The notes: generated by a model from the sequence alone, not told the origin. Numbered from the stretch's first letter, positions 4,134-20,000 are shown. The stretch is 20,000 bases of DNA from an uncultured virus (IMG/VR IMGVR_UViG_3300049982_000206) (IMGVR_UViG_3300049982_000206); one strand, 5' to 3'. Numbers and translations: made by a program.

Positions 4134-4153
4134 GCAGCGCTACCCCATATGCA

Positions 4154-4199
4154 CGCCGGGGTGGCGGCCGGAACCTTCGACGCCGCCGCCACTCCGGCG
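4154..4199 (+). other. Long GC-rich stem-loop (15-bp stem with one G-U, 16-nt loop) in the leader of the multi-HTH gene
   Basis: CGCCGGGGTGGCGGC (4154-4168) pairs with GCCGCCACTCCGGCG (4185-4199); no U-tract. Confidence 0.65.
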
Positions 4200-4218
4200 C
4201 TCCAACAGGAGCCCCAAA

Positions 4219-5504: not shown

Positions 5505-5535
5505 CAGGACGCTAAGCGCATGCACTCCCTACGGT
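5505..5535 (+). promoter_or_regulatory. Class II promoter-like motif, copy 3: CAGGACGCTA-N14-CTACGGT
   Basis: Intergenic, same spacing; TACGGT ends 6 nt before an SD-less ATG (5542). Confidence 0.65.
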
Positions 5536-8151: not shown

Positions 8152-8468
8152 CGTACTACACCCATCAAGCGATCGAGGCCGTCGCCGAGCCAGGCGACAA
8201 GAGCCGTGAATGCCGCGTGTGCGGGGTAGCTGTGACTGGCGTCGGCGACACACTCACCCACTGCGATGAGCAGATCCGCACGATCGCCGTCGACCGCGAG
8301 TACCTGTCGGCGGTGCGCCAAGCTGCTGAGGCCGCTGAGCAGGCGCTGTCCCAGATCACGATCCGTGCTACGGAAGCTGAGCGGGCCCGGGCGGTCGCCG
8401 TGGCCATCTATTCGGCTGGTCTGCTGCGGCAGAGGGCAGTGAGGCCGCGGGCCCAATCCAGTCGTTAA
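8148..8468 (+). CDS. Hypothetical protein (106 aa), CxxC plus Ala-rich helix
   Basis: ATGA coupling; its TAA stop is the first three bases of a class I motif. Confidence 0.7.
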   Translation: MTYYTHQAIEAVAEPGDKSRECRVCGVAVTGVGDTLTHCDEQIRTIAVDREYLSAVRQAAEAAEQALSQITIRATEAERARAVAVAIYSAGLLRQRAVRPRAQSSR

Positions 8469-8502
8469 GGGTGTGTACTTTCGCAGTAAGGGTGTGTACG
8501 CT
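8466..8502 (+). promoter_or_regulatory. Tandem class I motif: TAAGGGTGTGTACTTT (8466-8481) and TAAGGGTGTGTACGCT (8487-8502)
   Basis: Direct repeat with 21-bp period; no TTG-type -35 and no AAGAGCAG hairpin. Confidence 0.75.
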
Positions 8503-8511
8503 GAAGCTCAA

Positions 8512-8542
8512 CGCGACGCTAACTACATCCCTGTAGCACGGT
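8512..8542 (+). promoter_or_regulatory. Class II promoter-like motif, copy 4: CGCGACGCTA-N14-GCACGGT
   Basis: Intergenic, same spacing; 8 nt before ATG 8551. Confidence 0.75.
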
Positions 8543-8550
8543 GAGGCCGG

Positions 8551-8994
8551 ATGAGCACCCGGCCGAACAGGAGACCCGCCTTGACGATGCAAAAGCACAC
8601 CTTCGACGACGACGGCAACGGGTACTGCGACACGTGCCCGCTGCCGCATAAGAACCCCATTCACGACGTCGTACGACCGGCGGTCAACGAGCCGGCGCCG
8701 ATCATCACCGTGAACCAGACCGCCACCTCGCAGGCCGCTGGTGAGGCCGCCCGGATCCGCTCCGGATCGCTGCGCGAAGCGGCGTACCGGTTCATCGCAA
8801 GCCGCCCAGGCGGAGCGACCACAGAAGAGGTCGAGATCGCCCTGGAGCGGTCGCACCAGTCGGTGTCGTCCGCAATCAACTCCCTGACCGCGCACGGGCA
8901 CCTGACGGCGCTCGTTCGCAATGGCGCCGAGGTGCAGCGCGCTACCCGCTCTGGCCGCTCCGCCACCGTCTACGTCATCAGGCGGGCCGCATGA
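8551..8994 (+). CDS. Winged-helix DNA-binding protein with N-terminal H...CxxC...H module
   Basis: GATTEEVEIALERSHQSVSSAINSL...RATRSGRSATVY; alternative starts TTG 8581 or ATG 8587 follow an AGGAG. Confidence 0.8.
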   Translation: MSTRPNRRPALTMQKHTFDDDGNGYCDTCPLPHKNPIHDVVRPAVNEPAPIITVNQTATSQAAGEAARIRSGSLREAAYRFIASRPGGATTEEVEIALERSHQSVSSAINSLTAHGHLTALVRNGAEVQRATRSGRSATVYVIRRAA

Positions 8995-9260
8995 CGCGCG
9001 AGGAACTGCTCACGCTGCTGCTGGCCGAGGGCACCCAGCCCGGTCCGCTGCCGGGCGTCCCGTACGACTCCCCCACGGACCAGAAGGCACGGCGTGAAGC
9101 GCTGCTCTCTGACCTGCGCGCAGTCGACAAGTACAACTCCGGTCAACCGCGCCCACCCGCCGTACCGAGAATCGTCCGACGCGCCCAGTGTGCGAACTGC
9201 GGCTCACCGAACCTGGTCGCGGTACGCCCCCAGCCTCGCCGGCCGGAGGTGGCGGCATGA
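8991..9260 (+). CDS. Hypothetical protein (89 aa)
   Basis: ATGA-coupled at both ends. Confidence 0.7.
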   Translation: MTREELLTLLLAEGTQPGPLPGVPYDSPTDQKARREALLSDLRAVDKYNSGQPRPPAVPRIVRRAQCANCGSPNLVAVRPQPRRPEVAA

Positions 9261-9661
9261 CTCCCGAGCGAGCATTGACGGTCCGGCAACCGTGGGCATC
9301 CCTGATCATCACCGGCAACAAACTGATCGAGAACCGAGTGTGGGACACACGGTGGCGAGGCACGTTCGCCGTCCACGCTGGCAAGGCGGTCGACAAGCAC
9401 GACGTCGACGCACTCGCCGACGAGTTCGGGCTCACGCCGCCCCACCCGACGGGCTACCTCGGGCTCGTCGACCTCGTCGATGTCCACTTCGCCGACTTGC
9501 ACTGCTGCGGTGTCTGGGCCCTACCCGACGTCTACCACTGGCGCCTGGAGAATCCCCGCCCATTCCCTCAGCCAATCCCCGGTCTCGGCCGCCTCGGGCT
9601 GTACACCTGCCCACCAGCCGTTAGGGACGCCATCGCAACAACCCTCCGGGAGTCAGCGTGA
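9257..9661 (+). CDS. ASCH domain protein
   Basis: ALTVRQPWASLIITGNKLIENRVW...RG...HAGK matches the ASCH GxKxxExR signature; GGAGG before ATG 9257. Confidence 0.9.
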   Translation: MTPERALTVRQPWASLIITGNKLIENRVWDTRWRGTFAVHAGKAVDKHDVDALADEFGLTPPHPTGYLGLVDLVDVHFADLHCCGVWALPDVYHWRLENPRPFPQPIPGLGRLGLYTCPPAVRDAIATTLRESA

Positions 9662-9960
9662 CCACCGAACCGAACCACCTCACGACAGAGCAGATGCTGA
9701 CGGCTGGGCTCAGTCCACGCCAGCTCGAATACTGGGTCGGCCGCGGATATCTCCGGCCCGAAACTGCCAGCCCGGGCACCGGCTTCCCTCGCCGCTGGCC
9801 GCCGACCGAGCAGCAGATCGCGCACCTCATGGTCCGGCTCACTCACGCAGGTCTCATCCCCGGTGTCGCGGCTTCGGCTGCCCGGGTCGCGATCGAACAC
9901 GGCCTGACCGAGATCGTCCTATCGGACGGCATCGTCGTCGGCGTACGGGACGCCGCATGA
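9658..9960 (+). CDS. MerR-type HTH DNA-binding protein
   Basis: GLSPRQLEYWVGRGYLRP...GTGFPRRW...LTHAG. Confidence 0.8.
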   Translation: MTTEPNHLTTEQMLTAGLSPRQLEYWVGRGYLRPETASPGTGFPRRWPPTEQQIAHLMVRLTHAGLIPGVAASAARVAIEHGLTEIVLSDGIVVGVRDAA

Positions 9961-10523
9961 CCGACGCCCTATTCCCGCTCGGCGACCTCGGGGCCGAGAC
10001 GCTGTCGAGCGCAAGACTGTCTCCCTGCGGCACCTACCGCTACACCCTCGACCGGGTCTGGGACCGGCGGCGCCGCGCAGCAGTCTTCCTGATGCTGAAC
10101 CCGTCGACCGCCGATGCCAGCGAGAACGACCCGACCATCCGCCGCTGCATCGGGTTCGCGAAGCGCAACGGGTACGGCGGGATCACCGTGGTGAACCTGT
10201 TCGCACTCCGCGCCACCAAACCGGCCGCGCTCGCTCTGCACCCGGATCCGGTTGGTCCGGACAACGATATGTGGATCCAGTCGGTGCTGTTCAAGCAGCC
10301 TGCCGCCGTGATCGCCGCATGGGGCGCGTACCCACCCGCCGCCGGCCGTGGAATGGCGGATCGGGCTACTGAGCGCGTCGCCGCAGTACTGCGGCTGGTC
10401 GCCATCTACGGCGTTCCGCTCAAATGCCTCGGCACCACCAAAGACGGCCAACCGCGGCACCCGCTGTACCTGGCCGGCAGTACACCCCTGACCGATTACC
10501 GGCCCCCGGAGGTCGCAGCATGA
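9957..10523 (+). CDS. DUF1643 family protein
   Basis: SPCGTYRYTLDRVW...FLMLNPSTAD...DPTIRRC...VNLFALRAT...AAWG...PRHPLY; start ATG 9957 by ATGA overlap. Confidence 0.9.
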   Translation: MTDALFPLGDLGAETLSSARLSPCGTYRYTLDRVWDRRRRAAVFLMLNPSTADASENDPTIRRCIGFAKRNGYGGITVVNLFALRATKPAALALHPDPVGPDNDMWIQSVLFKQPAAVIAAWGAYPPAAGRGMADRATERVAAVLRLVAIYGVPLKCLGTTKDGQPRHPLYLAGSTPLTDYRPPEVAA

Positions 10524-11218
10524 AGAAGACGTACCCCAGCTTGCTCTTGCTAGTCGTCCTCGCGGTCTGTGCGGGAGGTGTCGCCTGGTCGCGCAGCGCA
10601 CCAACTCTGACCCTGCCCGCGCGCGTCGACCTGTCGATCCTGCAACTGCTGGACCACAGCAAGGTCGTCGACAAGCGTCCCGACGTACCCGGCTATGACC
10701 GTGGCTGCGGATCCGGTGAGGCCTGCGTCTTCGGGCAGGCCTGGGCCGACGTCGACCGCAACGGATGCGACACCCGCAACGACGTGCTGAAGCAGCAGCT
10801 CCAGAAGGAAACGGTCATCACCCGCACCGGAAGCCGCGGATGCGTGGTCATCTCCGGCGACGGCCGCGACCCGTACAGCGGCGGCCTCATCCGCTACCGC
10901 AAAACCAGCGGCGACGGAGACCACGTGGAGATCGACCACGTCTATCCGTTGGCGCTGGCCTGGGACATGGGCGCGAACACCTGGTCACAGGAGCGTCGGC
11001 GTGAATTCGCGAACGACCAGCTGAACCTCAAGGTCGCGCTGCAGAAGACCAACCGAGCGAAGAGTGACAAGACGCCAGCCGAGTGGACCGAGCACATCGC
11101 TCCGACGCTGCGCTGCGACTACGTCAAGACGTTCCTGAACGTTGCCCTCGCCTACGCCCTGCCGATCACCCGCGCTGACGCGGAGTCGATTCGGTCCACC
11201 GCCAACACCTGCGTCTGA
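10520..11218 (+). CDS. Secreted or membrane-anchored DUF1524 (HNH-like) nuclease
   Basis: Signal-like MKKTYPSLLLLVVLAVCAGG; NGCDTRNDVL, DPYSG, IDHVYPL, FAND..NL, NRAKSD motifs; GGAGG before ATG 10520. Confidence 0.88.
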   Translation: MKKTYPSLLLLVVLAVCAGGVAWSRSAPTLTLPARVDLSILQLLDHSKVVDKRPDVPGYDRGCGSGEACVFGQAWADVDRNGCDTRNDVLKQQLQKETVITRTGSRGCVVISGDGRDPYSGGLIRYRKTSGDGDHVEIDHVYPLALAWDMGANTWSQERRREFANDQLNLKVALQKTNRAKSDKTPAEWTEHIAPTLRCDYVKTFLNVALAYALPITRADAESIRSTANTCV

Positions 11219-11227
11219 GGAGACCCC

Positions 11228-11818
11228 GTGAAGAGTCCTACGACGGCACCCATCTACTTCGAGGTCGACGGCAAGCCTCAGCCTGCAACGAACTGCCACT
11301 GGATCGAGATTGCAACCTGTGGGTGCATCGCCGCGATTCACGTTGCTGCGTACGAGGTCCGCGGCGAACTGACCGTGCACAACACCGCTGAGGACGCGTT
11401 CTTCAGCGACCTGCCCAAGGTGGTGCGGGAGTACGAGCAGTCGCTCGGCCGCACCTACCGGCTGATCACCCACCAGCAGTACCGCGACACCTACATGGAC
11501 CAGATGAAGGGATCGTGCCCTCACACCCCGCAGTGGGGCGAGGTGCCGGTTCCGGTTCCGGACGGGTGGTCATGGAAGTGCAGCGACAGCGTCGTACGCC
11601 GGACGCACCGCAAGCACATCGTGCCCGACGAGATGCCTCAGGGCGGGCGCACACAGGTCGCTGCGCTGTGCGGCAAGAAGGAGTACGACTTTGCGTGGCG
11701 CGGTGACGAGTGGCATGACCTCGCACACAAGGTCCCGTGCAAGAAGTGCGTGAAGCGCGCCGACGAAACCAGTCCCGCACTGCCCGGCGTGCTGGACATG
11801 AAGACAGGAGAGCAGTGA
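11228..11818 (+). CDS. Cys/His-rich hypothetical protein (196 aa)
   Basis: GAGGAG before GTG 11228; TCGC, CPH, HIV...ALCG...CKKC. Confidence 0.78.
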   Translation: MKSPTTAPIYFEVDGKPQPATNCHWIEIATCGCIAAIHVAAYEVRGELTVHNTAEDAFFSDLPKVVREYEQSLGRTYRLITHQQYRDTYMDQMKGSCPHTPQWGEVPVPVPDGWSWKCSDSVVRRTHRKHIVPDEMPQGGRTQVAALCGKKEYDFAWRGDEWHDLAHKVPCKKCVKRADETSPALPGVLDMKTGEQ

Positions 11819-12366
11819 TGATCCGCAACCTCGCAAGAGTCTTGGCCGTCGTCCTGGTAGGCATCGGCGCGTTAGTTGCCTGCGGCGACGACCAGCAAGC
11901 TTGTGCGGCCACCATGGGGAACCCGAGACCCAACCCACCGAAGTACAACCCGCCGCCAAGGCCCAGCGGTCAGCGCACCTCGTCGAAGGTTCAGGACCGG
12001 ACGAGCAAGAAGACGACGACCGGCACCTCGAACGGCAGCAGCAAGAAGAGCACGAACCCGTACTGGCGGTCGTCGAGCAAGCCGACGACCTGGGGCGGGT
12101 ACAACACGAGCAGCCGAAACTGGTCGCAGCCGTACCGGAAGAACATGCCGGTCGCGCCGCAGCCGGTGATCGTGAACTACTACGGCCACGACTACCGGAC
12201 CTACCCGATGTTCCCGGGGTACTACCCGGTCGGTGTCTGGCCGGTCGGGTACGGGGCTCACTACGGCTGTGTTGCCGAGCGCGAGGCCGAGCCCGAGCAG
12301 GCGCCTACCCCGGCGCCGACCGTCACAGTCACCGTACCGCCGAGCCCAACGGAGACTCCTCGATGA
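11818..12366 (+). CDS. Lipoprotein with low-complexity Ser/Thr/Lys-rich and Tyr/Gly/Pro-rich segments (182 aa)
   Basis: AGGAG at 11806-11810; MIRNLARVLAVVLVGIGA-LVA-C lipobox. Confidence 0.8.
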   Translation: MIRNLARVLAVVLVGIGALVACGDDQQACAATMGNPRPNPPKYNPPPRPSGQRTSSKVQDRTSKKTTTGTSNGSSKKSTNPYWRSSSKPTTWGGYNTSSRNWSQPYRKNMPVAPQPVIVNYYGHDYRTYPMFPGYYPVGVWPVGYGAHYGCVAEREAEPEQAPTPAPTVTVTVPPSPTETPR

Positions 12367-13586
12367 GCGACAGCACGATCGAGTGGACACAGAAGGTCTG
12401 GAACCCAGTTCTGGGCTGCAGCCGGGTGTCGGCCGGGTGCACAAACTGCTACGCCATCACCTCGGCGCGAATCCGGCAGAGTAATCCGAACCCGAAGATC
12501 GCCACGGCGTTCGCGGGTCTCGTCGAACGCGTCGACGACGGTTCGGACAAGGGCCGGCTCGACTGGACCGGGCAGGTCAACCTGCTCCCCGAGCGTCTGT
12601 TCCAGCCGCTGAGGTGGAAGGCCGGTCAGCGGGTGTTCGTGAACTCGATGAGCGACCTGTTCCACAAGAACGTCCCGCGCAACTACATCGTCCAGGTGTT
12701 CGCCGTGATGGCCCTGGCCCGGTGGCACCAGTTCCAGTTGCTGACCAAGCAGCCTGCCCGCATGCGCAGTCTCCTCAATGACCCGGAGTTCCGGCCCGAT
12801 GTCCACATGGCCATGCAGGACCTGCTACGTCGAAGCGACGTACCGATCCCGATCGGGAACAAGCGGGCCCTCACCACGGACGTCGAGGCTTGGATGCCGT
12901 ACACCGAATGGCCGCTCCCCAACCTCTGGCTCGGCGTCTCCGTGGAAAACCAGAAGTGGGCAGACATCCGCATCCCTGCCCTGCTTGCGACTCCTGCGGC
13001 CGTCAGGTGGTTGTCGTGTGAGCCGCTGCTCGGTCCACTTAACCTTTTCGGGAGCGTCGACGAGGGATGCGACACAGCCGGTCCAGCGATCTCGCACGAG
13101 GGCTACTCGTTTCCGGTCGACTACGGCTCGGGGACCGAGTGGACATGTGATCATCAGGTCGGGATCGACTGGGTTGTCGCGGGTGGTGAGTCTGGCCACA
13201 ACGCCCGGCCCATGCACCCAGACTGGGCACGCAGCCTCCGCGACCAGTGCCAAGCCGCGGGCGTTCCGTTCCTGTTCAAGCAGTGGGGCGAGTGGGGGCC
13301 AGCAGAATGGAAGGTCGAGCGCATTGCGGGCGAGGCCGACCATGCGTACAAGGATCGAGCTGAGGCGGTCGGCGCGACCCACGTGCACACGCATAACCCG
13401 ATCGAGGTTGACGGCGAGACGACGTACCACCTGTACAAGCCGAACTACATGCCGTGGTCGATCGAGCGGCAGCCGATGGGCGAACACAACTGGCACGCGC
13501 CAATCCGCCGGTGGGGCAAGAAGAAGGCCGGCCGCGAGCTAGACGGCCTGGTACACGACGGCTACCCGGCCGCGGGGCGCGCATGA
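12363..13586 (+). CDS. DUF5131 / phage Gp37Gp68 family protein (three-Cys, radical-SAM-like)
   Basis: IEWT..WNPV.GC..VS.GC.NCYA, VFVNSMSDLFH, FQLLTK, NLWLGVSVENQ, LSCEPLLG, WVVAGGESG..ARPM, FLFKQWG; start ATG 12363. Confidence 0.93.
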   Translation: MSDSTIEWTQKVWNPVLGCSRVSAGCTNCYAITSARIRQSNPNPKIATAFAGLVERVDDGSDKGRLDWTGQVNLLPERLFQPLRWKAGQRVFVNSMSDLFHKNVPRNYIVQVFAVMALARWHQFQLLTKQPARMRSLLNDPEFRPDVHMAMQDLLRRSDVPIPIGNKRALTTDVEAWMPYTEWPLPNLWLGVSVENQKWADIRIPALLATPAAVRWLSCEPLLGPLNLFGSVDEGCDTAGPAISHEGYSFPVDYGSGTEWTCDHQVGIDWVVAGGESGHNARPMHPDWARSLRDQCQAAGVPFLFKQWGEWGPAEWKVERIAGEADHAYKDRAEAVGATHVHTHNPIEVDGETTYHLYKPNYMPWSIERQPMGEHNWHAPIRRWGKKKAGRELDGLVHDGYPAAGRA

Positions 13587-13759
13587 CTGGCCTTCCGCCT
13601 GTCGCCGCCCTGGAGGAGGTTCTGAAGGCCGCGCTGAGCAGCGGGGATGCCCGCGGCGTCACGGCCGCCCTGGAGCTGATCGCAGTGCAGGACCCCGACC
13701 GCGCAAGCGAGCTGCACGAAGCCATCCAACTCGGTATCGCTATTGGGAGCGCCTCATGA
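13583..13759 (+). CDS. Small helical hypothetical protein (58 aa)
   Basis: ATGA-coupled at both ends. Confidence 0.7.
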   Translation: MTGLPPVAALEEVLKAALSSGDARGVTAALELIAVQDPDRASELHEAIQLGIAIGSAS

Positions 13760-13992
13760 TCCTCGGAGACCTGACCGCACATCACATCGGCCGGATTGTC
13801 ACCTTCCGGCCTGGAGGCCCGGCCCGCGCGATCGCGAGCCTGCGACACTTCACGATCTCCGACCCGGAAACCAAGAACGGCGTACTGCGACGTACGAGCG
13901 TGATGCTCACGTCGACAGGAGCCGGCGCCAAAGACCATCAGAGCGAGCACATCGGCGACTCGGCCGACCAGGTGGTGATCGGGAATGGCTGA
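13756..13992 (+). CDS. Hypothetical protein (78 aa)
   Basis: GGGAG upstream, ATGA coupling. Confidence 0.7.
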   Translation: MILGDLTAHHIGRIVTFRPGGPARAIASLRHFTISDPETKNGVLRRTSVMLTSTGAGAKDHQSEHIGDSADQVVIGNG

Positions 13993-14296
13993 CTGGCTGA
14001 AGATCAAGATCGACCACGAGGTTCGGTGGCATAAGACGACTGAGTTCGAGGTCGACGCCGCGGCGGTCCGCGAGTACTTCGAGCTAGCCGACGATGCCGA
14101 GATCACCGAAGAGCAGCTGCGTGAGTACGTCGAGGGTGATCTGGAGTGTGGCGAGCCTGTCGGCTGGTTGCCGAACGAGGAGTACGGCGAGGGCTACGAC
14201 TGGGTGAGCGCTGACGTCCACGCAGTGACCTACGCAGAGGATCGGTCGCGCAGCCGTCTCGTGGAGGCAGTACAGCCGGACCAGCAGTATGTCTGA
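13985..14296 (+). CDS. Small highly acidic hypothetical protein (103 aa)
   Basis: 8-nt overlaps at both ends; about 27 Asp/Glu by hand count. Confidence 0.75.
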   Translation: MADWLKIKIDHEVRWHKTTEFEVDAAAVREYFELADDAEITEEQLREYVEGDLECGEPVGWLPNEEYGEGYDWVSADVHAVTYAEDRSRSRLVEAVQPDQQYV

Positions 14297-14654
14297 ACCC
14301 CGCCGAGCGCCGACGCGGATTCAGCGCAAGCGAACTCGGGGGTGGCGAATGCCAGCCGGCGCCGTGTACGTCGGTCGGCCGACGGTCTTCGGCAATCCGT
14401 GGACCAAAGGCGACGCCGAGTACTGGTTGACTCCCGCTGCCGACTGGCGCAAGTGGGTCGTGGATCGGTACGACGCCGAGTTGACCGAGCGCGGCGGAAC
14501 CGGCGAACTGGAGTTCGTCACCGTCGAGCAGATCCGCGAGCGGCTCCGCGGGAAAGACCTTGCCTGCTGGTGCCCGCTCGGTGCCGCGTGCCATGCCGAT
14601 GTACTGCTCCGAATCGCCAACGAAGAACCAGCCGTCAATGACGAGACCCGGTGA
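14289..14654 (+). CDS. DUF4326 family protein
   Basis: RIQRKRT.GWRMP..AVYVGRPT.FGNPW...LRGKDLACWCP...CHADVLL.IAN. Confidence 0.92.
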   Translation: MSEPRRAPTRIQRKRTRGWRMPAGAVYVGRPTVFGNPWTKGDAEYWLTPAADWRKWVVDRYDAELTERGGTGELEFVTVEQIRERLRGKDLACWCPLGAACHADVLLRIANEEPAVNDETR

Positions 14655-15135
14655 GAAGCCGCCGATGACTATCACCACTCGCCGCGCACTGGCCGAACCC
14701 TGCTTCACGACCTATCCGCTTCGCGGTCAAAAGCTGGTCTGCCCATTCGGCTGCGGCAACACCCTCATGTACACCATGCTCGACGTCCAGTGCTCCGACT
14801 CCGACTGCCCGAGCATGGGTGGTCCCGTCAGCAAGGTCCCACCCAGGTCGCCGTACCAGCACGGCGACCGAGTCCAATTGCACGGCTACCCGGGCGAGGA
14901 CGCCGGGCACCGTCGTACCGGATTCCGCGGCGTAGTCACCGGCTCGCTCGGATCGACCATCCTCCGCGGTCTCACCGACACTGGTGAGGAGTGGGCCGAA
15001 CACTGGGGCGCGCTAGACCCAGACGGGACACCGGCCCGCAGTGGTGCGTGTACCTGCTGCCCGAGGCCTGCGCGGAAGCCGGTCCAGCTCGAACTGTTCG
15101 GGATGGCTCGCTGCAAGTCGCCTGGAGTGTCATAG
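14638..15135 (+). CDS. Cys-rich hypothetical protein with SH3-like central segment
   Basis: Start ATG 14638 or 14665; CPFGC...CSDSDC, YQHGDRV...GVVTG, CTCC. Confidence 0.65.
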   Translation: MTRPGEKPPMTITTRRALAEPCFTTYPLRGQKLVCPFGCGNTLMYTMLDVQCSDSDCPSMGGPVSKVPPRSPYQHGDRVQLHGYPGEDAGHRRTGFRGVVTGSLGSTILRGLTDTGEEWAEHWGALDPDGTPARSGACTCCPRPARKPVQLELFGMARCKSPGVS

Positions 15136-15192
15136 CAGCAGGGTCGGTTCGGGCTGCTGATCACAGGCCTCTCGGATCTTCACGCGGGCCGA

Positions 15193-15223
15193 CGCGACAC
15201 TAAGCAGGCAGCCGGGGCAACGT
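15193..15223 (+). promoter_or_regulatory. Class II promoter-like motif, copy 5: CGCGACACTA-N14-GCAACGT
   Basis: Intergenic, upstream block identical to copies 1 and 2; ends 6 nt before the SD-less ATG 15230. Confidence 0.7.
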
Positions 15224-15229
15224 CGGCGT

Positions 15230-15637
15230 ATGGCCGATCCCCGACCCCAGTTCCTGCGCAGTGTCACCATCCGCGACCGAACGTCCAGTAACGACGAGCG
15301 GTTCCCCGTCCACGTCGGCAACAGCGTGCTCCTAGACGGTGAGGAGCACGCTGACCTGTTTCTGCTGAACGACGGCTGGACAGCTGAAGGCGGAGCACAT
15401 GAAGGCACCGTTCTCTCGCTGACCGCGGACGCTACCCGTGTGACGGTAGGCAGGGTGGCCGACGGAAAGTTCGAGTCGTACCGGCTCGACGACATCCCCG
15501 TACTGGTCCCCCGGGACGCCGAATGGGAGTTCCTGCCCGTCAGCGACGATCATCCGCCAGCGGTGCGAGTGCAGCTGTACGTCGAACACTTTGGGTTCGA
15601 CGTTCCCCCATCGGTCGAGACGGCTGTCGGAAAATGA
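15230..15637 (+). CDS. Acidic beta-rich hypothetical protein (135 aa)
   Basis: Fills the space between two promoter motifs; probable leaderless start. Confidence 0.72.
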   Translation: MADPRPQFLRSVTIRDRTSSNDERFPVHVGNSVLLDGEEHADLFLLNDGWTAEGGAHEGTVLSLTADATRVTVGRVADGKFESYRLDDIPVLVPRDAEWEFLPVSDDHPPAVRVQLYVEHFGFDVPPSVETAVGK

Positions 15638-15651
15638 CGGGCGCGGGATCG

Positions 15652-15681
15652 TTGCCTGAATCTAGTAAGGGTGTGTACGCT
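15652..15681 (+). promoter_or_regulatory. Class I promoter: TTGCCT-N18-TACGCT containing TAAGGGTGTGTACGCT
   Basis: Intergenic; -35 at 15652-15657, -10 at 15676-15681. Confidence 0.8.
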
Positions 15682-15685
15682 CGGG

Positions 15686-15719
15686 GTGAGGTGGAAGAGC
15701 AGCCACCCTCACTAGGAGG
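15686..15719 (+). promoter_or_regulatory. Leader hairpin GTGAGGTGG-AAGAGCAG-CCACCCTCAC followed by AGGAGG
   Basis: 9-bp stem with one bulged C; loop 15695-15702; SD 15714-15719; ATG 15727. Confidence 0.8.
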
Positions 15720-15726
15720 ACTCATC

Positions 15727-16233
15727 ATGCAGTTCAGCATCGAGCGCAACGAGAACATCACCCCGCAGCGCGCCCGCGGTGAAGCCTGGTCCGTTCGCGA
15801 CCAGGACGGCAACCGGGTCGGCATCATCTCCCACAGCGAACTGGGCTGGCGCGTCTTCTCGGCCGGCTGGGGCGTGAAGGTCGACCAGAACGAAGTCCAC
15901 CGCGCCCGCGACTTCGCGATCGCGGCCATCATCGATGCCCGCGAGATCGCCAATCAGCCGGGCGGGGCCCTCGCCATCGACGAGTCTGGTCTCACCGGTC
16001 ACCAGCGGGCGATGATCGACTTCCACCGCAAGTACGTGCAGGTCACCCCGGAGCGACGCAACTTCGTCATCTGGGAGCAGTTCGACATGTCGCCCACGCA
16101 GTTCTACAGCGAGTGGAACGCGCTCATCGACCACCCCCGGGCCCTCGCCTACGACCCGCACGTCATCAACCGGCACCTCCGCCTCCGCGACCAGCGGAAG
16201 GCGCGCCGCAGCCGCGTTCCCGTGACTGCGTGA
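15727..16233 (+). CDS. Two-domain protein with C-terminal DUF3263-like domain (168 aa)
   Basis: AGGAGG before ATG 15727; LTGHQRAMIDF...FDMSPTQFY..WNALIDHP.ALAYDP..INR..RLR resembles actinobacterial DUF3263. Confidence 0.8.
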   Translation: MQFSIERNENITPQRARGEAWSVRDQDGNRVGIISHSELGWRVFSAGWGVKVDQNEVHRARDFAIAAIIDAREIANQPGGALAIDESGLTGHQRAMIDFHRKYVQVTPERRNFVIWEQFDMSPTQFYSEWNALIDHPRALAYDPHVINRHLRLRDQRKARRSRVPVTA

Positions 16234-16535
16234 TGACCACGACTCTGCTGGTTTCCCCCCGGAGCAAGGTGGCCGCATGTGCCATCGTGCTCCGGCGGGC
16301 TCAGCTTCCTGCGGAGGTCGGATACGACCGCCACGTTGGGCATCATGTCCGCGTGAATGTTGCCGGGAGCAACCCCGGCTACTACCTCGTCACACCTGCA
16401 CGAGTCGAACAGTTCAGGGTCCGCTGGTATCCGCGCAACAGCCAGCCGCCGCGCCCTGACTTGCTCGGCATCGTCGACACACCGGCACGCGCCGCCGGTT
16501 TGATCCTCGACCACTACGAGGGTCTGGTCCGCTGA
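16233..16535 (+). CDS. Hypothetical protein (100 aa)
   Basis: GTGATG coupling at 16230-16235. Confidence 0.68.
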   Translation: MTTTLLVSPRSKVAACAIVLRRAQLPAEVGYDRHVGHHVRVNVAGSNPGYYLVTPARVEQFRVRWYPRNSQPPRPDLLGIVDTPARAAGLILDHYEGLVR

Positions 16536-16537
16536 CC

Positions 16538-17113
16538 ATGCCTGGAAGGACATCCCCTGTGCCCAACTTCTCTACCAGCCTGCATCTCCCGTCCGATATC
16601 GCTGAGGAACGGGTGGACGAAATTGGCCGCGCCGTACTGATCGAGCAGGCCCGGAAAGAAGGCCTCTCGATCACCGGCGAGGTGACCCGAGTCCTGGATC
16701 AATTCGTGGTCGGCGTGATGGCACCGGACCACACCGGTCAGATGGTCGTCACGCACGTCCCAATCGATTCCCCCCTCGCCGGAGGCCGCACCGATCCCGA
16801 TGCCCGGTCCGTCACCTGGGCGGCCGATGCTAGCGAGGTCACAACCGACCCGGCACTCGTCATCGTGGGCACAGTCGACGGTTCTGTCTCGCGCGCGGTG
16901 CTGCCGCCGTCGATCAGCGAGCACGGCGGCATGGTCGCCTTCCGGCACAACCTGGACAGCGACGACGTCCTGGTGCTGGTCCTCGACGCCTCCGGAGACC
17001 GGATGGGTTACGAGTTCGCGGTCGAGATCGACAACAACGAGCAGCAGGTCTTGGTGCCCCGTGGCGCCCACACGATTCAGGCCAGCAGCAACGACGAGGA
17101 GCCGACCAAGTGA
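16538..17113 (+). CDS. Acidic hypothetical protein (191 aa) with C-terminal HNL...V.V.D..G motif
   Basis: Starts 2 nt after the previous stop; GTGA overlap at the 3' end. Confidence 0.72.
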   Translation: MPGRTSPVPNFSTSLHLPSDIAEERVDEIGRAVLIEQARKEGLSITGEVTRVLDQFVVGVMAPDHTGQMVVTHVPIDSPLAGGRTDPDARSVTWAADASEVTTDPALVIVGTVDGSVSRAVLPPSISEHGGMVAFRHNLDSDDVLVLVLDASGDRMGYEFAVEIDNNEQQVLVPRGAHTIQASSNDEEPTK

Positions 17114-17793
17114 GACAACGCGCATGGACTCCCGACCAGGTCATCGTCAACGCTGGTAATCGGATCCTTGCCCAGGAACCGAAGCGCGACTGCAACCGGT
17201 GCGGCACCCGCCTCGGCGACATGAACGAGATCGAGCTGGCGGCCGCCGCCCGTGGCCGACGCATCAGCCCGGTCAACAGTGAGTGCCCGATGTGCCTCGG
17301 GTTCCACGCGATCCTGGCCACGTACGTCCGCCCGCTGGAGGCGGGCATCGTGGTTCCGCTCGACATCCGGATTCTTTGTCCTGGCGCTCCTGCTGGGGCA
17401 GTTGTGGCGAACTGCGCGGCATGGGCGCCGTGCGGTTGTGTACCTGCTGCAGGTACAGGGGTTCCCTCGGTCGAGTGGGCATCGTTCCTGGCGAGCCCGT
17501 GCGCCTCCTCCCCGACCGGCGAGCACCGCCACCTCGTCGAGCGTGACGAACCGGACAGCCCGTGCATCGCGGCCCCGCAGGCAGATACCTGCGAATACCT
17601 TGATGTCGCTCGCCGCTCTCCTGGATGGCAATCACGCTGGAACATCGCGCCGGCCGAACCGACCGGATGGCTGTTCGACGTGGTCACGGAACCTGGCCTC
17701 TATCCCGTCGAGATCGAGCTACTTGACCGGGACACGCTCGCTTTCGAGTTCGTGAAGGTCACTCCCCACCGGCATGCCGAGGTGGGGCAGTAA
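17110..17793 (+). CDS. Cys-rich hypothetical protein (227 aa), N-terminal CxxC...CxxC Zn-finger
   Basis: GAGGAG upstream; RDCNRCG..LGD...ECPMC. Confidence 0.75.
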   Translation: MRQRAWTPDQVIVNAGNRILAQEPKRDCNRCGTRLGDMNEIELAAAARGRRISPVNSECPMCLGFHAILATYVRPLEAGIVVPLDIRILCPGAPAGAVVANCAAWAPCGCVPAAGTGVPSVEWASFLASPCASSPTGEHRHLVERDEPDSPCIAAPQADTCEYLDVARRSPGWQSRWNIAPAEPTGWLFDVVTEPGLYPVEIELLDRDTLAFEFVKVTPHRHAEVGQ

Positions 17794-18263
17794 TGCCGCG
17801 GCGCGGGATACTGTCGCTGGTCGTCAGCAACCTTGTCGAATCGGCGAGGCGCGAATCGTCCGCGGACCGCAGCTTCATTGACGGCGCCACTGCCCCGGTG
17901 CAGCTCACCAAGCTGCCGGACTTGCAGCACAACGCTGTCCAGTTTGCGATCTCACGCGAGATGGCAGTCGATCTGGGCATCGTCGAACCGACGCCGCAGG
18001 AGCTGACAGACCGCAGTGGGAGTGTCGCTGACTCCCGGATCCGGTACGCCGCCAGGATCGCGCTGTCGGCCGAGTGGTTCCTGGCCATCCTGGATGCTGC
18101 AGGACCTGTTGGCGCTGCGGCTGTTGGCCTGCACACCCCCGGCCGGTACGGCGACTGCGAGGGGTGCGGGTTCGAGGACATGGCCGGGCTGCCCTGGCCG
18201 TGCGCGACGGTCCTTGCAGCGGCCGAGGCCGCCGGCCTTCCGGAACCGGACGGCATCATCTGA
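17793..18263 (+). CDS. Hypothetical protein (156 aa), C-terminal H...CxxC...WPC motif
   Basis: TAATG and TGATG coupling; LHTP...CEGC...WPCAT. Confidence 0.72.
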   Translation: MPRRGILSLVVSNLVESARRESSADRSFIDGATAPVQLTKLPDLQHNAVQFAISREMAVDLGIVEPTPQELTDRSGSVADSRIRYAARIALSAEWFLAILDAAGPVGAAAVGLHTPGRYGDCEGCGFEDMAGLPWPCATVLAAAEAAGLPEPDGII

Positions 18264-18475
18264 TGGCGATCTCACCGGTGTTCCTCGACATCGTTGACGA
18301 CGCCCAGTGGGTGAAGGTCGATCGCCGCACGGTTCGCATGTTCGTCTGGAAAGGCGCCACCTCTGTCGGCGTCTACTCGACCGAGGACGGGTCGCTCCTG
18401 GACGAATGGGAGTGCTCGCCGTCGATGGGGTCCGCTGCGGTTGTGGTTGCTGAGCGAACCAATGGCGGCTACTGA
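18263..18475 (+). CDS. Small hypothetical protein (70 aa)
   Basis: ATG 18263 via TGATG; ends just before a class I promoter. Confidence 0.68.
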   Translation: MAISPVFLDIVDDAQWVKVDRRTVRMFVWKGATSVGVYSTEDGSLLDEWECSPSMGSAAVVVAERTNGGY

Positions 18476-18481
18476 CCTCAC

Positions 18482-18510
18482 TTGTCAGGTGTGTTAAGCG
18501 GGTGTACGCT
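18482..18510 (+). promoter_or_regulatory. Class I promoter: TTGTCA-N17-TACGCT containing TAAGCGGGTGTACGCT
   Basis: Intergenic; near-consensus -35; 16-mer identical to 19914-19929. Confidence 0.82.
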
Positions 18511-18517
18511 CGGGTCA

Positions 18518-18550
18518 TGAGTCGGGAAGAGCAGCCCGCCACACAGGAGG
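18518..18550 (+). promoter_or_regulatory. Leader hairpin TGAGTCGGG-AAGAGCAG-CCCGCCACA followed by AGGAGG
   Basis: 4-bp core stem, extendable with 2 mismatches; loop 18527-18534; SD 18545-18550; GTG 18556. Confidence 0.78.
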
Positions 18551-18555
18551 ACACC

Positions 18556-19479
18556 GTGACCGTCACCGCCGAAACCGCCATCACCGTCACCCGCGGCGAG
18601 ACCCTGACCATCGGCAACTCGCAGTTCTACACCCGCGGCAACAAGCCGACGGCCACTCTGGTCACGGTCAACGACGGCGAGACATTCCTGGAGATCGGCG
18701 GCACGCTCTACGCGCAGTGCGGCTGGTGCGAGTACGGCACCAAGTCCTGGCACGGCAACGTCTTCAGCGGCGTGTGCTTCCAGTGCGACGGACGCGGATA
18801 CGACCGTGAGGTCGGCACTGTCGAGGTCGCCGCCAAGCGCGTTCACAACCGCGCTCTGCGCCAGGCGCGCAACGCCCGCAAGGAGGCCGACAAGGCCGCT
18901 GCAGCCCAGACGGCGGGCGCCGAGTGGCGTGCCGCGAACGAGGATCTTGCCGACGCGCTCGCAGCGATCTACGCCGAACTGGCTGAGGTGAGCGACAACT
19001 TCACCTACGACGCCCACACCGCGCTCGAAGCCAAGTGGAGCGACTTCGTTCTCCAGATGGCGAACACCGTCGGCATGGGTCACGCCCTCACGACGAACCA
19101 GACCGTCTCGGTCACGGATGCGATCGAGACGGCGATCGTCGAAGAGGCCGCGAAGCTGGCTCGCCAGAACGCGTCCCGCTGGCTCGGCCAGGAGAAGGAC
19201 AAGGTGACCGCGACCGGCACGGTCAAGGTCGCAATGCCGATCGAGGTCGAGAACTACGCCACCAAGATGCCCGAGACCAAGATGCTGATCATCATCGAAG
19301 GCACCGGCGAGTTCACCGGCGTCACCTTCAAGATCTTCGGCACCGGCAAGACCCTCTGGGAAACCGAGCGAGGCCAGGACGTCACCGTCAGCGGCACCGT
19401 GAAGAAGCACAGCGAGCGCGACGACATCAAGCAGACCGAGCTGACGCGAGCCAAGATCACCCCCACCGCCGGGGCGTGA
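18556..19479 (+). CDS. Zn-finger (CxxC...CxxCxGxG) + helical linker + C-terminal OB-fold-like protein (307 aa), putative single-stranded nucleic-acid-binding
   Basis: CGWC...GVCFQCDGRG; LGQEKDKVTATGTVK...GQDVTVSGTVKKH.E...KQT.LTRAK; strong SD; strongly C/G-ending codons. Confidence 0.8.
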   Translation: MTVTAETAITVTRGETLTIGNSQFYTRGNKPTATLVTVNDGETFLEIGGTLYAQCGWCEYGTKSWHGNVFSGVCFQCDGRGYDREVGTVEVAAKRVHNRALRQARNARKEADKAAAAQTAGAEWRAANEDLADALAAIYAELAEVSDNFTYDAHTALEAKWSDFVLQMANTVGMGHALTTNQTVSVTDAIETAIVEEAAKLARQNASRWLGQEKDKVTATGTVKVAMPIEVENYATKMPETKMLIIIEGTGEFTGVTFKIFGTGKTLWETERGQDVTVSGTVKKHSERDDIKQTELTRAKITPTAGA

Positions 19480-19500
19480 CCCCCTCCCCCAGGACCGACA

Positions 19501-19531
19501 GGCCGGGAAGAGCAGCCCGGCCGGACAGGAG
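19501..19531 (+). promoter_or_regulatory. Intercistronic hairpin GGCCGGG-AAGAGCAG-CCCGGCC followed by AGGAG, with no adjacent promoter motif
   Basis: Perfect 7-bp stem; loop 19508-19515; SD 19527-19531; ATG 19538. Confidence 0.8.
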
Positions 19532-19537
19532 CCCGAC

Positions 19538-19825
19538 ATGACCACCATGACCATGATCCCGATCGACGCAGTCGCTACGCAGCACCTCATCAGCCTCTTC
19601 ACCCTGCGGACCATCGGCGCCCGCGACCTCGTGATCGACGACACCGGCGTCTTCGCGTTCTTCTACGGCAAGACTGGCCGAGTCCAGATCCGCCTGACCG
19701 GCACCGACGTCTACCTGGTCGAGGTCGGACACGTCGACCGGCGCACCTTCGAGTGGGTCATCGACCGCTGGCAGAACGACGTCGCCGCGAGCGATCTCCG
19801 AGAGGTCCTGCAGGAACTCACCTGA
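19538..19825 (+). CDS. Conserved hypothetical phage/mobile-element protein (95 aa)
   Basis: AGGAG upstream; IGA...F...V.I.L...D.Y.V...DV...DL pattern. Confidence 0.78.
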   Translation: MTTMTMIPIDAVATQHLISLFTLRTIGARDLVIDDTGVFAFFYGKTGRVQIRLTGTDVYLVEVGHVDRRTFEWVIDRWQNDVAASDLREVLQELT

Positions 19826-19849
19826 CCTGACCATCGACCGCCCCCACGC

Positions 19850-19890
19850 GAGGCGCGCCCGGAAGTTCCGGGCGCGCCTCCGCTTCGTTT
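19850..19890 (+). terminator. Intrinsic terminator-like hairpin
   Basis: Perfect 15-bp inverted repeat GAGGCGCGCCCGGAA-G-TTCCGGGCGCGCCTC (19850-19880) followed by CGCTTCGTTT, between a stop codon and the next promoter. Confidence 0.8.
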
Positions 19891-19900
19891 AGGCGCGTCC

Positions 19901-19929
19901 TCGACGACCGGACTAAGCGGGTGTACGCT
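19901..19929 (+). promoter_or_regulatory. Class I promoter: TCGACG-N17-TACGCT containing TAAGCGGGTGTACGCT
   Basis: Immediately downstream of the terminator; 16-mer at 19914-19929. Confidence 0.78.
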
Positions 19930-19937
19930 GTACCGGA

Positions 19938-19972
19938 TGGATGGGAAGAGCAGCCCAGCCCAGCACTAGGAG
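19938..19972 (+). promoter_or_regulatory. Leader hairpin (TGGA)TGGG-AAGAGCAG-CCCA(GCC) followed by AGGAG
   Basis: Loop 19946-19953; AGGAG 19968-19972; no well-spaced start codon before the window ends. Confidence 0.72.
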
Positions 19973-20000
19973 AGGACCCCCAGCCTTCGCTTGTCCCCAC

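Follow-up and report, generated by a model that had tools for sequence, protein, structure and literature searches.

In the available text of PMC3369931 and PMC8164766, ANTAR targets are described as two hairpins 2-25 nt apart, with short stems of free sequence and recognition through loop bases, and many actinobacterial examples act at the ribosome-binding site (RBS) by translational repression. The PeSL stem-loop of T4-like phages, as far as it is treated in the accessible part of PMC2839356, is a terminator upstream of a sigma-70-type early promoter, with conserved G-run and C-run arms. The phage helix-turn-helix proteins Aca2 and Aca1 bind 5'-UTR hairpins, which in the case of Aca2 leads to translational repression (PMC13551039, in part), and the initiation regions of numerous early T4 mRNAs are a joint target of RegA and RegB (PMC3014915, in part). 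The SAS and ESAS elements of Cluster K actinophages are, in the accounts available, repeated motifs of one orientation that are limited to non-structural genes. In lambdoid phages, the boxB hairpin of the nut site lies just downstream of early promoters and is read via its loop by the N protein. As a general kind, motifs or hairpins that recur at gene starts in the early regions of phages are already published.

The DNA analysed here comes from an uncultured actinobacterial phage in a soil metagenome; the window, i.e., the whole stretch analysed, spans 20,000 nt of a 134,914-bp contig. It contains six copies of a hairpin which is a genuine gene-expression signal, absent from catalogues, and which stands before the RBS of six early gene cassettes (Table 1). 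All six are on the coding strand, the sense of the element always being that of the genes; all five copies listed in the preliminary description stand, and a sixth, c8545 (8545-8564), had been missed. Non-coding DNA makes up about 4% of the window, and the six hairpins lie within it, occupying six of its nine non-coding stretches. Each stem consists of 4-9 Watson-Crick base pairs of a sequence that differs between copies, and every loop is built on GAGCA: AAGAGCAG in four copies, ATGAGCAC in one and ATAGAGCAAC in one. The octamer AAGAGCAG occurs five times, on the + strand only, versus 0.32 expected, and five or more occurrences were found in 0 of 200 shuffles. The four identical loops named earlier (15695, 18527, 19508, 19946) all have their stems; the remaining match, at 14109, lies stemless within a coding region and was therefore rejected as a chance match. 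The variant at 4083 (AGTCGG/CCGACT) is a real copy: a covariance model trained without it placed it sixth among 48 matches (16.1 bits, E value 0.06; next match 15.5 bits). We read the element, with a confidence somewhat short of even, as a 5'-UTR operator read via its loop, through which early cassettes of one class would be coordinated in their translation or stability.

Table 1. Positions of the hairpin copies and of the associated signals in the window.
Feature	Position	Strand	Remarks
Class A promoter-like box, TAAGGGTGTGTACGCT	4055-4070	+	-10-like TACGCT at 4065-4070
Hairpin c4077, AGTCGG / ATAGAGCAAC / CCGACT	4077-4098	+	16.1 bits, outside training set; within MFE structure, -6.9 kcal/mol; start at predicted +1
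AGGAG of c4077	4103-4107	+	10 nt past loop; no start codon behind
Leader of HTH gene (c4077)	4100-4218	+	Non-coding, without codon-position GC signal; gene start 4219 or 4264
Tandem class A boxes	8466-8481, 8487-8502	+	Box match; first a variant ending TACTTT, second exact
Class B promoter-like motif (GCGACG, 18 nt, CACGGT)	8513-8542	+	Alignment; between class A box and hairpin
Hairpin c8545, GGCCGG / ATGAGCAC / CCGGCC	8545-8564	+	29.0 bits, -11.7 kcal/mol; newly found
AGGAG of c8545	8569-8573	+	10 nt past loop; start TTG 8581 or ATG 8587
MarR-like wHTH gene after c8545	start 8581 or 8587	+	
Class A box before c15686	15666-15681	+	Box match
Hairpin c15686, GTGAGGTGG / AAGAGCAG / CCACCCTCAC	15686-15712	+	9 bp, bulged C15708; 28.9 bits, -11.7 kcal/mol
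AGGAG of c15686	15714-15718	+	11 nt past loop; ATG 15727, NapA-like DUF3263 gene
Class A box, TAAGCGGGTGTACGCT	18495-18510	+	Box match
Hairpin c18523, CGGG / AAGAGCAG / CCCG	18523-18538	+	Outer pair G18521-C18540; 30.7 bits, -4.8 kcal/mol
AGGAG of c18523	18545-18549	+	10 nt past loop; GTG 18556
Hairpin c19501, GGCCGGG / AAGAGCAG / CCCGGCC	19501-19522	+	Intercistronic, no promoter box; 34.4 bits, -14.8 kcal/mol
AGGAG of c19501	19527-19531	+	11 nt past loop; ATG 19538
Intrinsic terminator, 14 bp	19850-19880	+	Ends preceding unit
Class A box before c19942	19914-19929	+	Box match
Hairpin c19942, TGGG / AAGAGCAG / CCCA	19942-19957	+	32.0 bits, -4.0 kcal/mol; outer pairs G19939/G19940-C19960/C19959
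AGGAG of c19942	19968-19972	+	14 nt past loop; gene extends beyond window

Over the six copies, 36 of 36 stem pairs are Watson-Crick on stem sequences that are unlike one another, and the MFE fold of each of the six leaders contains the hairpin with its loop unpaired. The stems do keep pairing, as had been claimed, with the qualification that GTGAGGTGG/CCACCCTCAC carries one bulged C (15708). In a covariance model and covariation check of the window copies, to which these figures refer (the protein sequences of relatives leave wobble positions open), both sides are changed in four of the seven modelled pairs. The covariation score is 0.505 in the true register versus at most 0.13 in slid registers, and was reached by 0 of 500 shuffles, which supports the notion of a structured element whose stems compensate and whose loop is constrained in sequence; pairing cells amount to 85.7% in the copies versus 67% in the shuffles. 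The same 12-mer combined with AGGAG has 40 chance matches in IMG/VR, of which 27 form two pairs, 11 three, two four, and none five or more, versus 4, 4, 5(+4) and 7 pairs in four of the window copies. The reading frame of the loop varies, giving KSS at 15686 and 19942 and EEQ at 18523; a conserved peptide therefore does not explain the loop, and coding constraint was ruled out as its cause.

The distance from the loop to AGGAG had been given as 10-14 nt, and the gaps in the six copies are 10, 10, 11, 10, 11 and 14 nt, at an offset where AGGAG is found in only 0.8% of window positions. The gap is near-constant while the 3' arm measures 4-10 nt and the spacer 1-10 nt; stem and spacer thus offset one another. 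At c4077, AGGAG is retained despite the absence of a start codon, the next 115 nt at least being non-coding. This module bears on the possibility, in our estimate very improbable, that a phage or host endoribonuclease reads the loop and cuts nearby, either inactivating early initiation regions or making defined 5' ends. The element does lie in the initiation regions of early-type cassettes, including that of the intercistronic copy 19501, AGGAG belongs to the conserved module even where a start codon is lacking, and T4 RegB cuts GGAG in early initiation regions, with class-wide shut-off (PMC3014915, in part). In the same partial account, however, RegB-type recognition takes place without a hairpin and is hindered by structure; furthermore, no cleavage site is marked in the sequence and no nuclease family was found among the window ORFs. 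The likeness to RegA and RegB would lie in class-wide post-transcriptional control of early messages with GGAG as part of the target, whereas their sites are, in the available text, unstructured; a homologue of either was not detected in the window.

Upstream, five of the six copies are preceded by a phage-specific box with the consensus TAAG[G/C]G[T/G]GTGTACGCT (class A), which has six matches at up to 2 mismatches in the window, on the + strand only, versus 0.03 expected. The copy at 19501 lacks the box, confirming that the element is separable from the promoter. In two copies, TACGCT is followed by the stem at 4 and 6 nt, in two others at 12 nt (9-10 nt with the outer pairs included), and in c8545, the newly found one, at 42 nt. 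Therefore, the earlier placement of the stem 4-8 nt after TACGCT, at +1, is true of two copies only. With transcript ends predicted from promoter geometry, the hairpin lies within a few nucleotides of the 5' end in two copies, nearly so in two, and not in the other two, and the argument from 5'-terminal hairpins fits no more than two to four copies. The same distances bear on a rather unlikely explanation that dispenses with a reader, namely that hairpin and strong RBS would stabilise the message against 5'-end-dependent decay (RNase J and RNase E of actinobacteria) and insulate the RBS, the Shine-Dalgarno sequence (SD) being kept unpaired and the loop being conserved for folding or by common descent of the cassettes. 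The stems of c4077 and c15686 begin at the predicted +1 and those of c18523 and c19942 within about 3-6 nt of it, when +1 is placed by the 6-nt distance from -10 to start codon at two leaderless class B starts; the SD is mostly unpaired in the predicted leader folds; and c4077 is a hairpin with a startless AGGAG heading a long leader, an arrangement which we take to resemble the SD-type stabilisers of Bacillus mRNAs. However, some 36 nt separate c8545 from the class A start, c19501 is internal, and two 4-bp stems (-4.0 and -4.8 kcal/mol) would protect poorly. Stabilisation also leaves unexplained the eight invariant loop bases and two invariant closing pairs on otherwise diverged stems, as well as the retention of the loop in relatives at 47-66% protein identity.

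The position behind promoters likewise bears on a nut-like site, an improbable reading in which an N-like arginine-rich antiterminator would bind the nascent loop at class A promoters and render RNA polymerase terminator-resistant. As in a nut site, there is a small hairpin after an early promoter, which would be recognised through its loop with the stem sequence free; the class A -10-like box precedes five of the six copies by 4-42 nt, and the copy without a promoter, 19501, is followed after about 330 nt by the sole strong intrinsic terminator (19850-19880). The early protein 2354-2686 starts with an arginine-rich stretch, presumably similar to those which N-type proteins employ, but has no PDB sequence match at E values up to 10. 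Moreover, the copies are many, their loops are 8-10 nt instead of a pentaloop, and the set distance of 10-11 nt to AGGAG is not accounted for by antitermination. Because its own promoter follows at once, read-through is superfluous at terminator 19850. The interval from the -10-like box to the stem contains nothing conserved, boxA-like or otherwise, the flanks differing in all copies, and with neither boxA nor a pentaloop the element was rejected as a lambdoid nut site. Two class B starts in the window are leaderless, with 6 nt from the -10 to the start codon. The copy c18523 has the same geometry, with an in-frame ATG at 18517, 6 nt past the -10, and its hairpin may be part of a translated N-terminal extension. 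Two cassettes have a leaderless mini-ORF that traverses the hairpin and has the TAG of TAGGAG as its stop codon.

Relatives are known as proteins, and their upstream DNA was read via mis-called N-termini, in which box, loop and spacing are retained upstream of the same genes. In a DUF3263 homologue called as a 5'-partial gene (P0025; 66% identity), class A box, 5' arm, loop, closing pairs and spacing all recur in the in-frame upstream translation, the reference being the window's own in-frame reading. Two further proteins, P0043 (58% identity) and P0044 (47%), retain the translation of hairpin c18523 and its SD; if this hairpin does lie in a translated N-terminal extension, that conservation could be at the protein level. 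Among the matches listed, related contigs from the same study align at 80% or more over 15666-15921 and 8471-8565, one aligned piece (at least 80%) ends at 8566, homology with one contig starts precisely with base 15666, the first of a class A box, and the box 4051-4074 is an isolated conserved island in another. The latter two observations, with the scope just given, would suit an element acting at the DNA level, a reading to which we assign hardly any probability: either a promoter-hairpin-SD recombination cassette, by which relatives would swap genes as with the PeSLs of T4-like phages, or a 12-mer operator on double- or single-stranded DNA. As would be expected of an inserted module, the AGGAG of c4077 has no gene to serve; the 10-11 bp spacing amounts to one DNA helical turn; and since G-U pairs are absent from all stems, the hairpin could fold on either strand and pairing alone cannot separate RNA from single-stranded DNA. 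However, a duplex site needs no flanking complementarity, which all six copies have in differing sequences, and copies spread by recombination should share stems, which these do not. A cassette role may be true of the class A box itself.

PeSL modules resemble the present ones, in the available text of PMC2839356 and PMC4122927, in that a large phage carries dense series of near-identical promoter modules before small early genes, and homology with relatives, among the matches listed, breaks at the module. The PeSL stem-loop, in the same partial accounts, lies upstream of the promoter in a terminator role (PMC2839356) and is unlinked to an SD, whereas the hairpin here is downstream of the box, in the transcript and SD-adjacent, with a conserved loop. 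PeSL was rejected, the hairpin lying after the box without a T run and the terminator 19850-19880 being a separate element. A scan of the window against Rfam 15 at E values up to 1 gave no match at any copy; its sole match was ASpks (2384-2456; 31.1 bits versus a gathering score of 52), away from the copies. The ANTAR likeness, as far as the partial accounts of that family go, lies in stems of at least 3 bp with free sequence and, possibly, in an inner hexamer AGAGCA with A at position 1 and G at 4, like the ANTAR hexaloops. This hexamer is present in five of the six copies (UGAGCA, with U at position 1, in c8545), within 8-10 nt loops, and an A-G or A-C closing mismatch (U-A in c4077) would be needed, the loop otherwise being 8 nt. 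The hairpin here is single: no second hairpin (at least 3 bp, A1/G4 hexaloop) was found within 45 nt downstream in any of the six copies, and upstream there are three weak candidates, two of them inside the promoter box, against a background of 0.14 per 45 nt. With the two-stem-loop arrangement (2-25 nt linker) in none of the six copies, an ANTAR target RNA was rejected; an ANTAR domain (PF03861) was not found among the window's 38 ORFs.

With SAS and ESAS, as far as the available descriptions of Cluster K extend, the element shares repetition in one orientation, the tie to the RBS of a subset of genes with AGGAG as part of a broader conserved stretch, and an inverted repeat immediately upstream of the SD. 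ESAS, however, has conserved, imperfect 17-bp arms around a variable spacer in these descriptions, while the arms here are variable (4-10 nt, differing) and the loop conserved, and five of the six copies have a dedicated promoter box; ESAS was rejected on its arms. The SAS 13-mer GGGATAGGAGCCC is not enriched in the window, with nine matches at up to 3 mismatches versus 6.8 expected, a count reached in 44 of 200 shuffles, and with a single site at up to 2 mismatches (19522-19534; 2 mismatches), i.e., at one of the six copies. SAS, as defined in those descriptions, was rejected with the count at chance level. Aca2 and Aca1 likewise involve phage 5'-UTR hairpins near an RBS, but these proteins recognise the helix in the manner of DNA, and the motif is that of one operon type (PMC13551039, in part), whereas the present element has a helix of free sequence and stands before several unrelated genes. 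The suggestion that the hairpin is not a described motif stands after the literature search, its general kind apart.

The operator reading adds a mechanism to the structure, covariation, placement, spacing and conservation in relatives established above; from sequence, we infer action as RNA, the existence of a reader and the direction of the effect, and the earlier RNA-operator interpretation is in this sense partly supported. The element would act in cis, as a stem-loop within the 5'-UTR of early mRNAs, in cassettes of the order class A promoter box, hairpin, AGGAG and start codon. The helix would need merely to exist, while the loop (GAGCA core, two closing G-C pairs) would need its specific sequence and a position 10-11 nt along the chain before the SD. 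A trans-acting reader would recognise the loop and thereby govern how accessible the adjacent site is to ribosomes and, in consequence, how long the mRNA lasts. Phage precedents for such a mechanism are the Aca2 and Aca1 proteins and the RegA/RegB pair of T4. This reader would most likely be a phage-encoded protein, possibly on or with the 30S subunit; scans of the window ORFs against Pfam, PHROGs and NCBIfam (38 ORFs; 7 ORFs) found no known RNA-binding domain. If one reader acts on all cassettes, their first genes would be switched together, e.g., licensed or silenced at a given stage of infection.

The distance to the SD is constant in linear and not in spatial terms, which speaks somewhat against a loop reader, since for a loop-bound protein on a folded hairpin this is not the simplest expectation. 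According to a quite improbable variant, the hairpin would be a translation licence tag, with its loop at a set distance of 10-11 nt from the SD/anti-SD helix. There, the loop would be read by a phage factor that is docked on the 30S platform; alternatively, the platform would read it directly once the stem has opened. If true, ribosomes would be steered to, or later kept off, class A early messages, and host messages would be treated differently from these. The leaderless mini-ORF through the hairpin in two cassettes might then add a second, ribosome-driven opening.

The loop sequence AAGAGCAG is present five times in the window, always on the plus strand (expected number, 0.32). Four of these occurrences are borne on stems, and a scan for hairpins centred on GAGCA recovered two further copies with variant loops (see table), so that six hairpins, named here by their first stem base, are considered (c4077, c8545, c15686, c18523, c19501 and c19942). 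The fifth occurrence, at 14109, lies within a gene, has no stem, and was rejected as a copy. The preliminary description had reported the four identical loops and the variant at 4083; all five are real according to the loop count and the hairpin scan, but its total missed c8545. A covariance model (R1) was trained on an alignment (A3) of the five copies with an 8-nt loop, leaving out c4077. R1 scores its training copies at 28.9-34.4 bits and, with filters off, ranks the untrained c4077 directly after them (16.1 bits; E value 0.06), above generic hairpins (at most 15.5 bits); the minus strand of the window contains no comparable match. An RNA encoded in the window and complementary to the loop can be ruled out, since the plus strand lacks CTGCTCTT and the minus strand lacks AAGAGCAG. 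Loop-like strings without a stem are found in two other initiation regions, AGGAGGAGCAGCC before GTG 5918 (5903-5920) and AGGAGAGCAG before ATG 11818 (11806-11820); these may be meaningless, since chance alone should yield about one 7-mer match.

Coordinates of the hairpins, promoter-like motifs, mini-ORFs and genes discussed in the text
Feature	Position	Strand	Remarks
Hairpin c15686	15686-15712	+	loop AAGAGCAG; stem sequence differs among copies
Hairpin c18523	18523-18538	+	loop AAGAGCAG; stem sequence differs among copies
Hairpin c19501	19501-19522	+	loop AAGAGCAG; stem sequence differs among copies
Hairpin c19942	19942-19957	+	loop AAGAGCAG; stem sequence differs among copies
Variant hairpin c4077	4077-4098	+	loop ATAGAGCAAC
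Sixth hairpin c8545	8545-8564	+	loop ATGAGCAC
Tandem class A boxes	8466-8502	+	21 nt apart; TACTTT replaces TACGCT in the first
Class B motif	2601-2630, 3493-3522, 5506-5535, 8513-8542, 15194-15223		GCGACA-like, exactly 18 nt, CACGGT/TACGGT/CAACGT
Mini-ORF VRWKSSHPH, 9 codons and stop	15686-15715	+	runs through hairpin, ends on TAG of TAGGAG
Mini-ORF MDGKSSPAQH, 10 codons and stop	19937-19969	+	runs through hairpin, ends on TAG of TAGGAG
Arginine-rich early protein, 111 aa	2354-2686	+	N-terminal arginine-rich stretch, then K-R-A-Q-P-K-W
HTH protein, 412-427 aa	4219-5502	+	several HTH motifs; weak sigma-70 region-4 similarity (phrog_1590)
NapA-type gene	15727-16230	+	first gene 3' of hairpin c15686

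Every stem pair is Watson-Crick in all copies. In an ungapped alignment of five sequences, 85.7% of the paired cells are complementary versus 66.8 ± 5.4% in shuffles, and the covariation score is 0.486 versus 0.148, a value reached by none of 500 shuffles of these five sequences from one window. When c4077 is included, both sides change in four of seven pairs, the score is again matched by 0 of 500 shuffles, and the score does not exceed 0.133 in slid registers; as this six-sequence alignment was fitted to the model, it is biased toward pairing, and the covariation is that of six copies within one 20-kb window. An independent control was provided by the pattern GGAAGAGCAGCC, 8-12 nt, AGGAG, which has 40 matches in IMG/VR, apparently all in coding DNA. 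Contiguous pairing around these matches (GG/CC counted) never reaches 5 bp: it stops at 2 bp for 27 of them, at 3 bp for 11 and at 4 bp for 2, while the same measure gives 4, 4, 5 (plus 4 past a bulge) and 7 bp for four copies of the window. The compensating stems under a constant loop that had been proposed from inspection are thus upheld by the shuffling test. In the minimum-energy folds that RNAfold predicts for the six leaders, the hairpin is always present with its loop open, and the isolated hairpins have energies of -4.0 to -14.8 kcal/mol. Such stems might act as a stabiliser or insulator that no factor reads, an alternative which, beside a loop kept constant on stems of differing sequence, we regard as unlikely though deserving some weight.

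The hairpins are associated with one class of promoter-like sequence. The class A box, TAAG[G/C]G[T/G]GTGTACGCT (16 nt, ending in the -10-like TACGCT), occurs six times at up to two mismatches, all on the plus strand (expected number, 0.03); five boxes are exact, the sixth being the tandem variant at 8466, and each of the five exact boxes has a hairpin downstream. The box at 19914 comes after the sole strong intrinsic terminator (19850-19880), an adjacency from which we conclude that a class A box very probably begins a transcription unit. At a second promoter-like motif, class B, two copies have an ATG exactly 6 nt past the -10-like hexamer (5542 and 15230). Leaderless actinobacterial mRNAs show this spacing, which suggests that both class B starts are of this kind. 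Class A transcript starts were predicted from the same 6-nt spacing. The predicted +1 would fall on the first stem base in c4077 and within the outer stem in c15686; it would precede the stem by about 3-6 nt in c18523 and c19942, and by about 36 nt in c8545. The distance from TACGCT to the stem is 6, 42, 4, 12 and 12 nt in c4077, c8545, c15686, c18523 and c19942, respectively, so that the 4-8 nt first claimed, with the stem at +1, holds for c4077 and c15686 and fails for c18523 and c19942. A start predicted from the class B motif at 8513 would remove the 5' arm of c8545, whose hairpin would then be formed only in transcripts from the upstream class A box. Non-coding stretches of at least 20 nt number nine and make up about 4% of the window; six contain a hairpin and three class B alone. 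Box and hairpin could together form a cassette or operator acting at the DNA level, a reading to which, next to the covariation of the stems, we attach very little credence. A separate hairpin (2655-2680; GGCCCTCC / CAC / GGAGGCC), flanked by a class B motif and the Shine-Dalgarno sequence (SD) of gene 2701, has its GGAGG paired with an upstream CCTCC.

The element is also tied to the ribosome site. AGGAG follows the loop by 10, 10, 11, 10, 11 and 14 nt in the six copies, in agreement with the 10-14 nt of the preliminary description, and AGGAG at such an offset is found at only 0.8% of window positions. Across the copies the 3' arm ranges over 4-10 nt and the spacer over 1-10 nt, one lengthening as the other shortens, so that the linear distance stays fixed. 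In c4077 no start codon lies behind the AGGAG, and 4100-4218 has no codon-position G+C signal, which argues that AGGAG belongs to the module and is more than the SD of a neighbouring gene. An arginine-rich ORF considered behind c4077 was rejected, as the region lacks a coding signature. In the cassettes (class A box, hairpin, AGGAG, start codon) of c15686 and c19942, ACTAGGAG takes the place of ACAGGAG, and these two alone carry, at or beside the predicted +1, a start codon in frame with the TAG. Leaderless uORFs, coupled to the main start, are a possible interpretation of the resulting mini-ORFs. In c18523, ATG 18517 sits 6 nt past the class A -10 and in the frame of the gene (18517-18558), which would permit a leaderless isoform with an extended N-terminus. 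The translated loop reads KSS in c15686 and c19942 and EEQ in c18523, and a conserved peptide therefore cannot account for it. The public call for the latter gene (P0037, 320 aa) takes ATG 18517 as its first codon, and gene 8581 can be given a wrong start at ATG 8551 within the c8545 loop; since gene callers begin genes inside the element, recognition of the motif improves annotation.

We tentatively favour, at somewhat less than even confidence, a loop-read mRNA operator which couples one promoter class to shared post-transcriptional control of ribosome access and stability. A candidate reader would recognise the loop, and ribosome access and mRNA stability would be set jointly for class A messages. 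Two observations which every final model must explain, namely that the linear spacing is fixed and that one AGGAG lacks a gene, point to a putative reader that includes the initiating ribosome or a factor on it. Nut sites are likewise read via a loop beside an early promoter, have a boxA and a pentaloop, and are not linked to an SD. The likeness lies in loop reading beside an early promoter, the reader here being putative; the window hairpins, in contrast, have neither boxA nor pentaloop and do have the SD link, and a nut-like site is in our judgement unlikely. An RNase signal seems decidedly improbable. No Rfam family matched the hairpin in a covariance-model check, and full-text literature searches, some aimed at loop-conserved hairpins before SDs in actinophages, turned up no description of the motif, consistent with the initial view that it is not a described motif. 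ANTAR targets (PMC3369931; PMC8164766) have free stems in common with the window hairpins, and their A1/G4 hexamer would fit the inner loop bases of five of the six copies if a non-canonical A-G or A-C pair (U-A in c4077) closed it; they require two hairpins, however, and a second hairpin is present in none of the six copies. Cluster K SAS/ESAS elements are similarly placed and likewise of unassigned function, with an architecture opposite to that of the window hairpins, and the window shows no enrichment of the SAS 13-mer. PeSL stem-loops (PMC2839356) are terminators 5' of the promoter, unlike the hairpins here. Other work describes phage regulators able to bind 5'-UTR hairpins (Aca1 and Aca2; PMC13551039) and class-wide control of early messages (T4 RegA and RegB; PMC3014915). 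Such a tag, short, constant in its loop, free in its stem and set at a fixed distance from the ribosome site, would mark co-regulated genes, and could serve as bait for finding their regulator. To our knowledge, little is known of how the many small early genes of unassigned function in large uncultured phages are controlled as a set.

Megablast of 15000-20000 against phages returned no match, distant blastn of 8400-16300 only the DUF5131 and DUF1643 genes, blastn with one cassette nothing below E 0.6, and tblastn with two proteins as queries nothing but remote matches among phages and plasmids; in two mycobacteriophage loci from the latter the model had no match at E ≤1. IMG/VR pattern scans yielded chance matches only, IMG/VR scans with protein or alignment found no relatives, and pattern scans of genome and metagenome contigs gave four chance matches each, all in coding DNA. 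The 168-aa DUF3263 protein, which is among the best conserved proteins of the phage clade, has 25 homologues (47-89% identity), the HTH protein has 9 (38-48%) and the 307-aa protein 12 (39-65%), some encoded on contigs of 84-136 kb; sequence comparison indicates that a clade of related phages exists. The protein records of three relatives (P0025, P0043 and P0044) include translated upstream DNA; a search of representatives found no N-terminally extended forms. In P0025 (66% identity), a 5'-partial call, ...AKGVYARGEVEEQPPGLEQQA precedes the conserved first Met, where the window in the same frame has KGVYARGEVEEQPPSLGGLI. Judged from codon positions 1-2 only, P0025 retains the class A box, both the 5' arm and the inner 3' arm, the loop together with its closing pairs, and GGAG at its position; it differs from the window in the outer 3' arm. 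P0043 (58%) and P0044 (47%) start with MSREEQPA, as does P0037, followed by a translated SD at equal offset. Among the matches listed, at a likeness of at least 80%, three contigs of the same study align: one of 12,356 bp from 15666 (exact) to 15921, one of 151 bp spanning 8471-8565, and one of 10,676 bp with one piece ending at 8566 and an isolated island at 4051-4074.

The window (66% G+C) carries all of its genes on the plus strand; they are small, mostly of unassigned function, and include DUF1643, DUF5131, DUF4326, an HNH/GmrSD_C nuclease and several HTH proteins, so that the window looks like the early, non-structural arm of an actinobacteriophage. A soil metagenome is the sole public run with the sequence, and the proteins of the window are recorded from a 134,914-bp contig. 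The product of 15727-16230 combines a beta-rich N-terminal domain with a NapA-type (DUF3263) nucleoid-associated DNA-binding domain and matches PDB 9n2n/9n2g (M. tuberculosis NapA on AT-rich DNA); the idea, taken from a PDB chain letter, that it is ribosome-bound was discarded, as it is a DNA-binding nucleoid protein. The 2354-2686 protein, whose N-terminus we take to recall arginine-rich RNA-binding peptides, is a candidate reader; family, PDB and Atlas look-ups gave no match for it. The 4219-5502 gene is preceded by a leader of at least 115 nt with c4077 at its start, and its product might regulate the promoters of class A or class B. Summed depth in the aligned contigs is about 430x in the bin 10673-11339, which holds the nuclease gene, versus about 20-50x in other bins and 2.5x in the next one; this gene is common to many other genomes in the sample.
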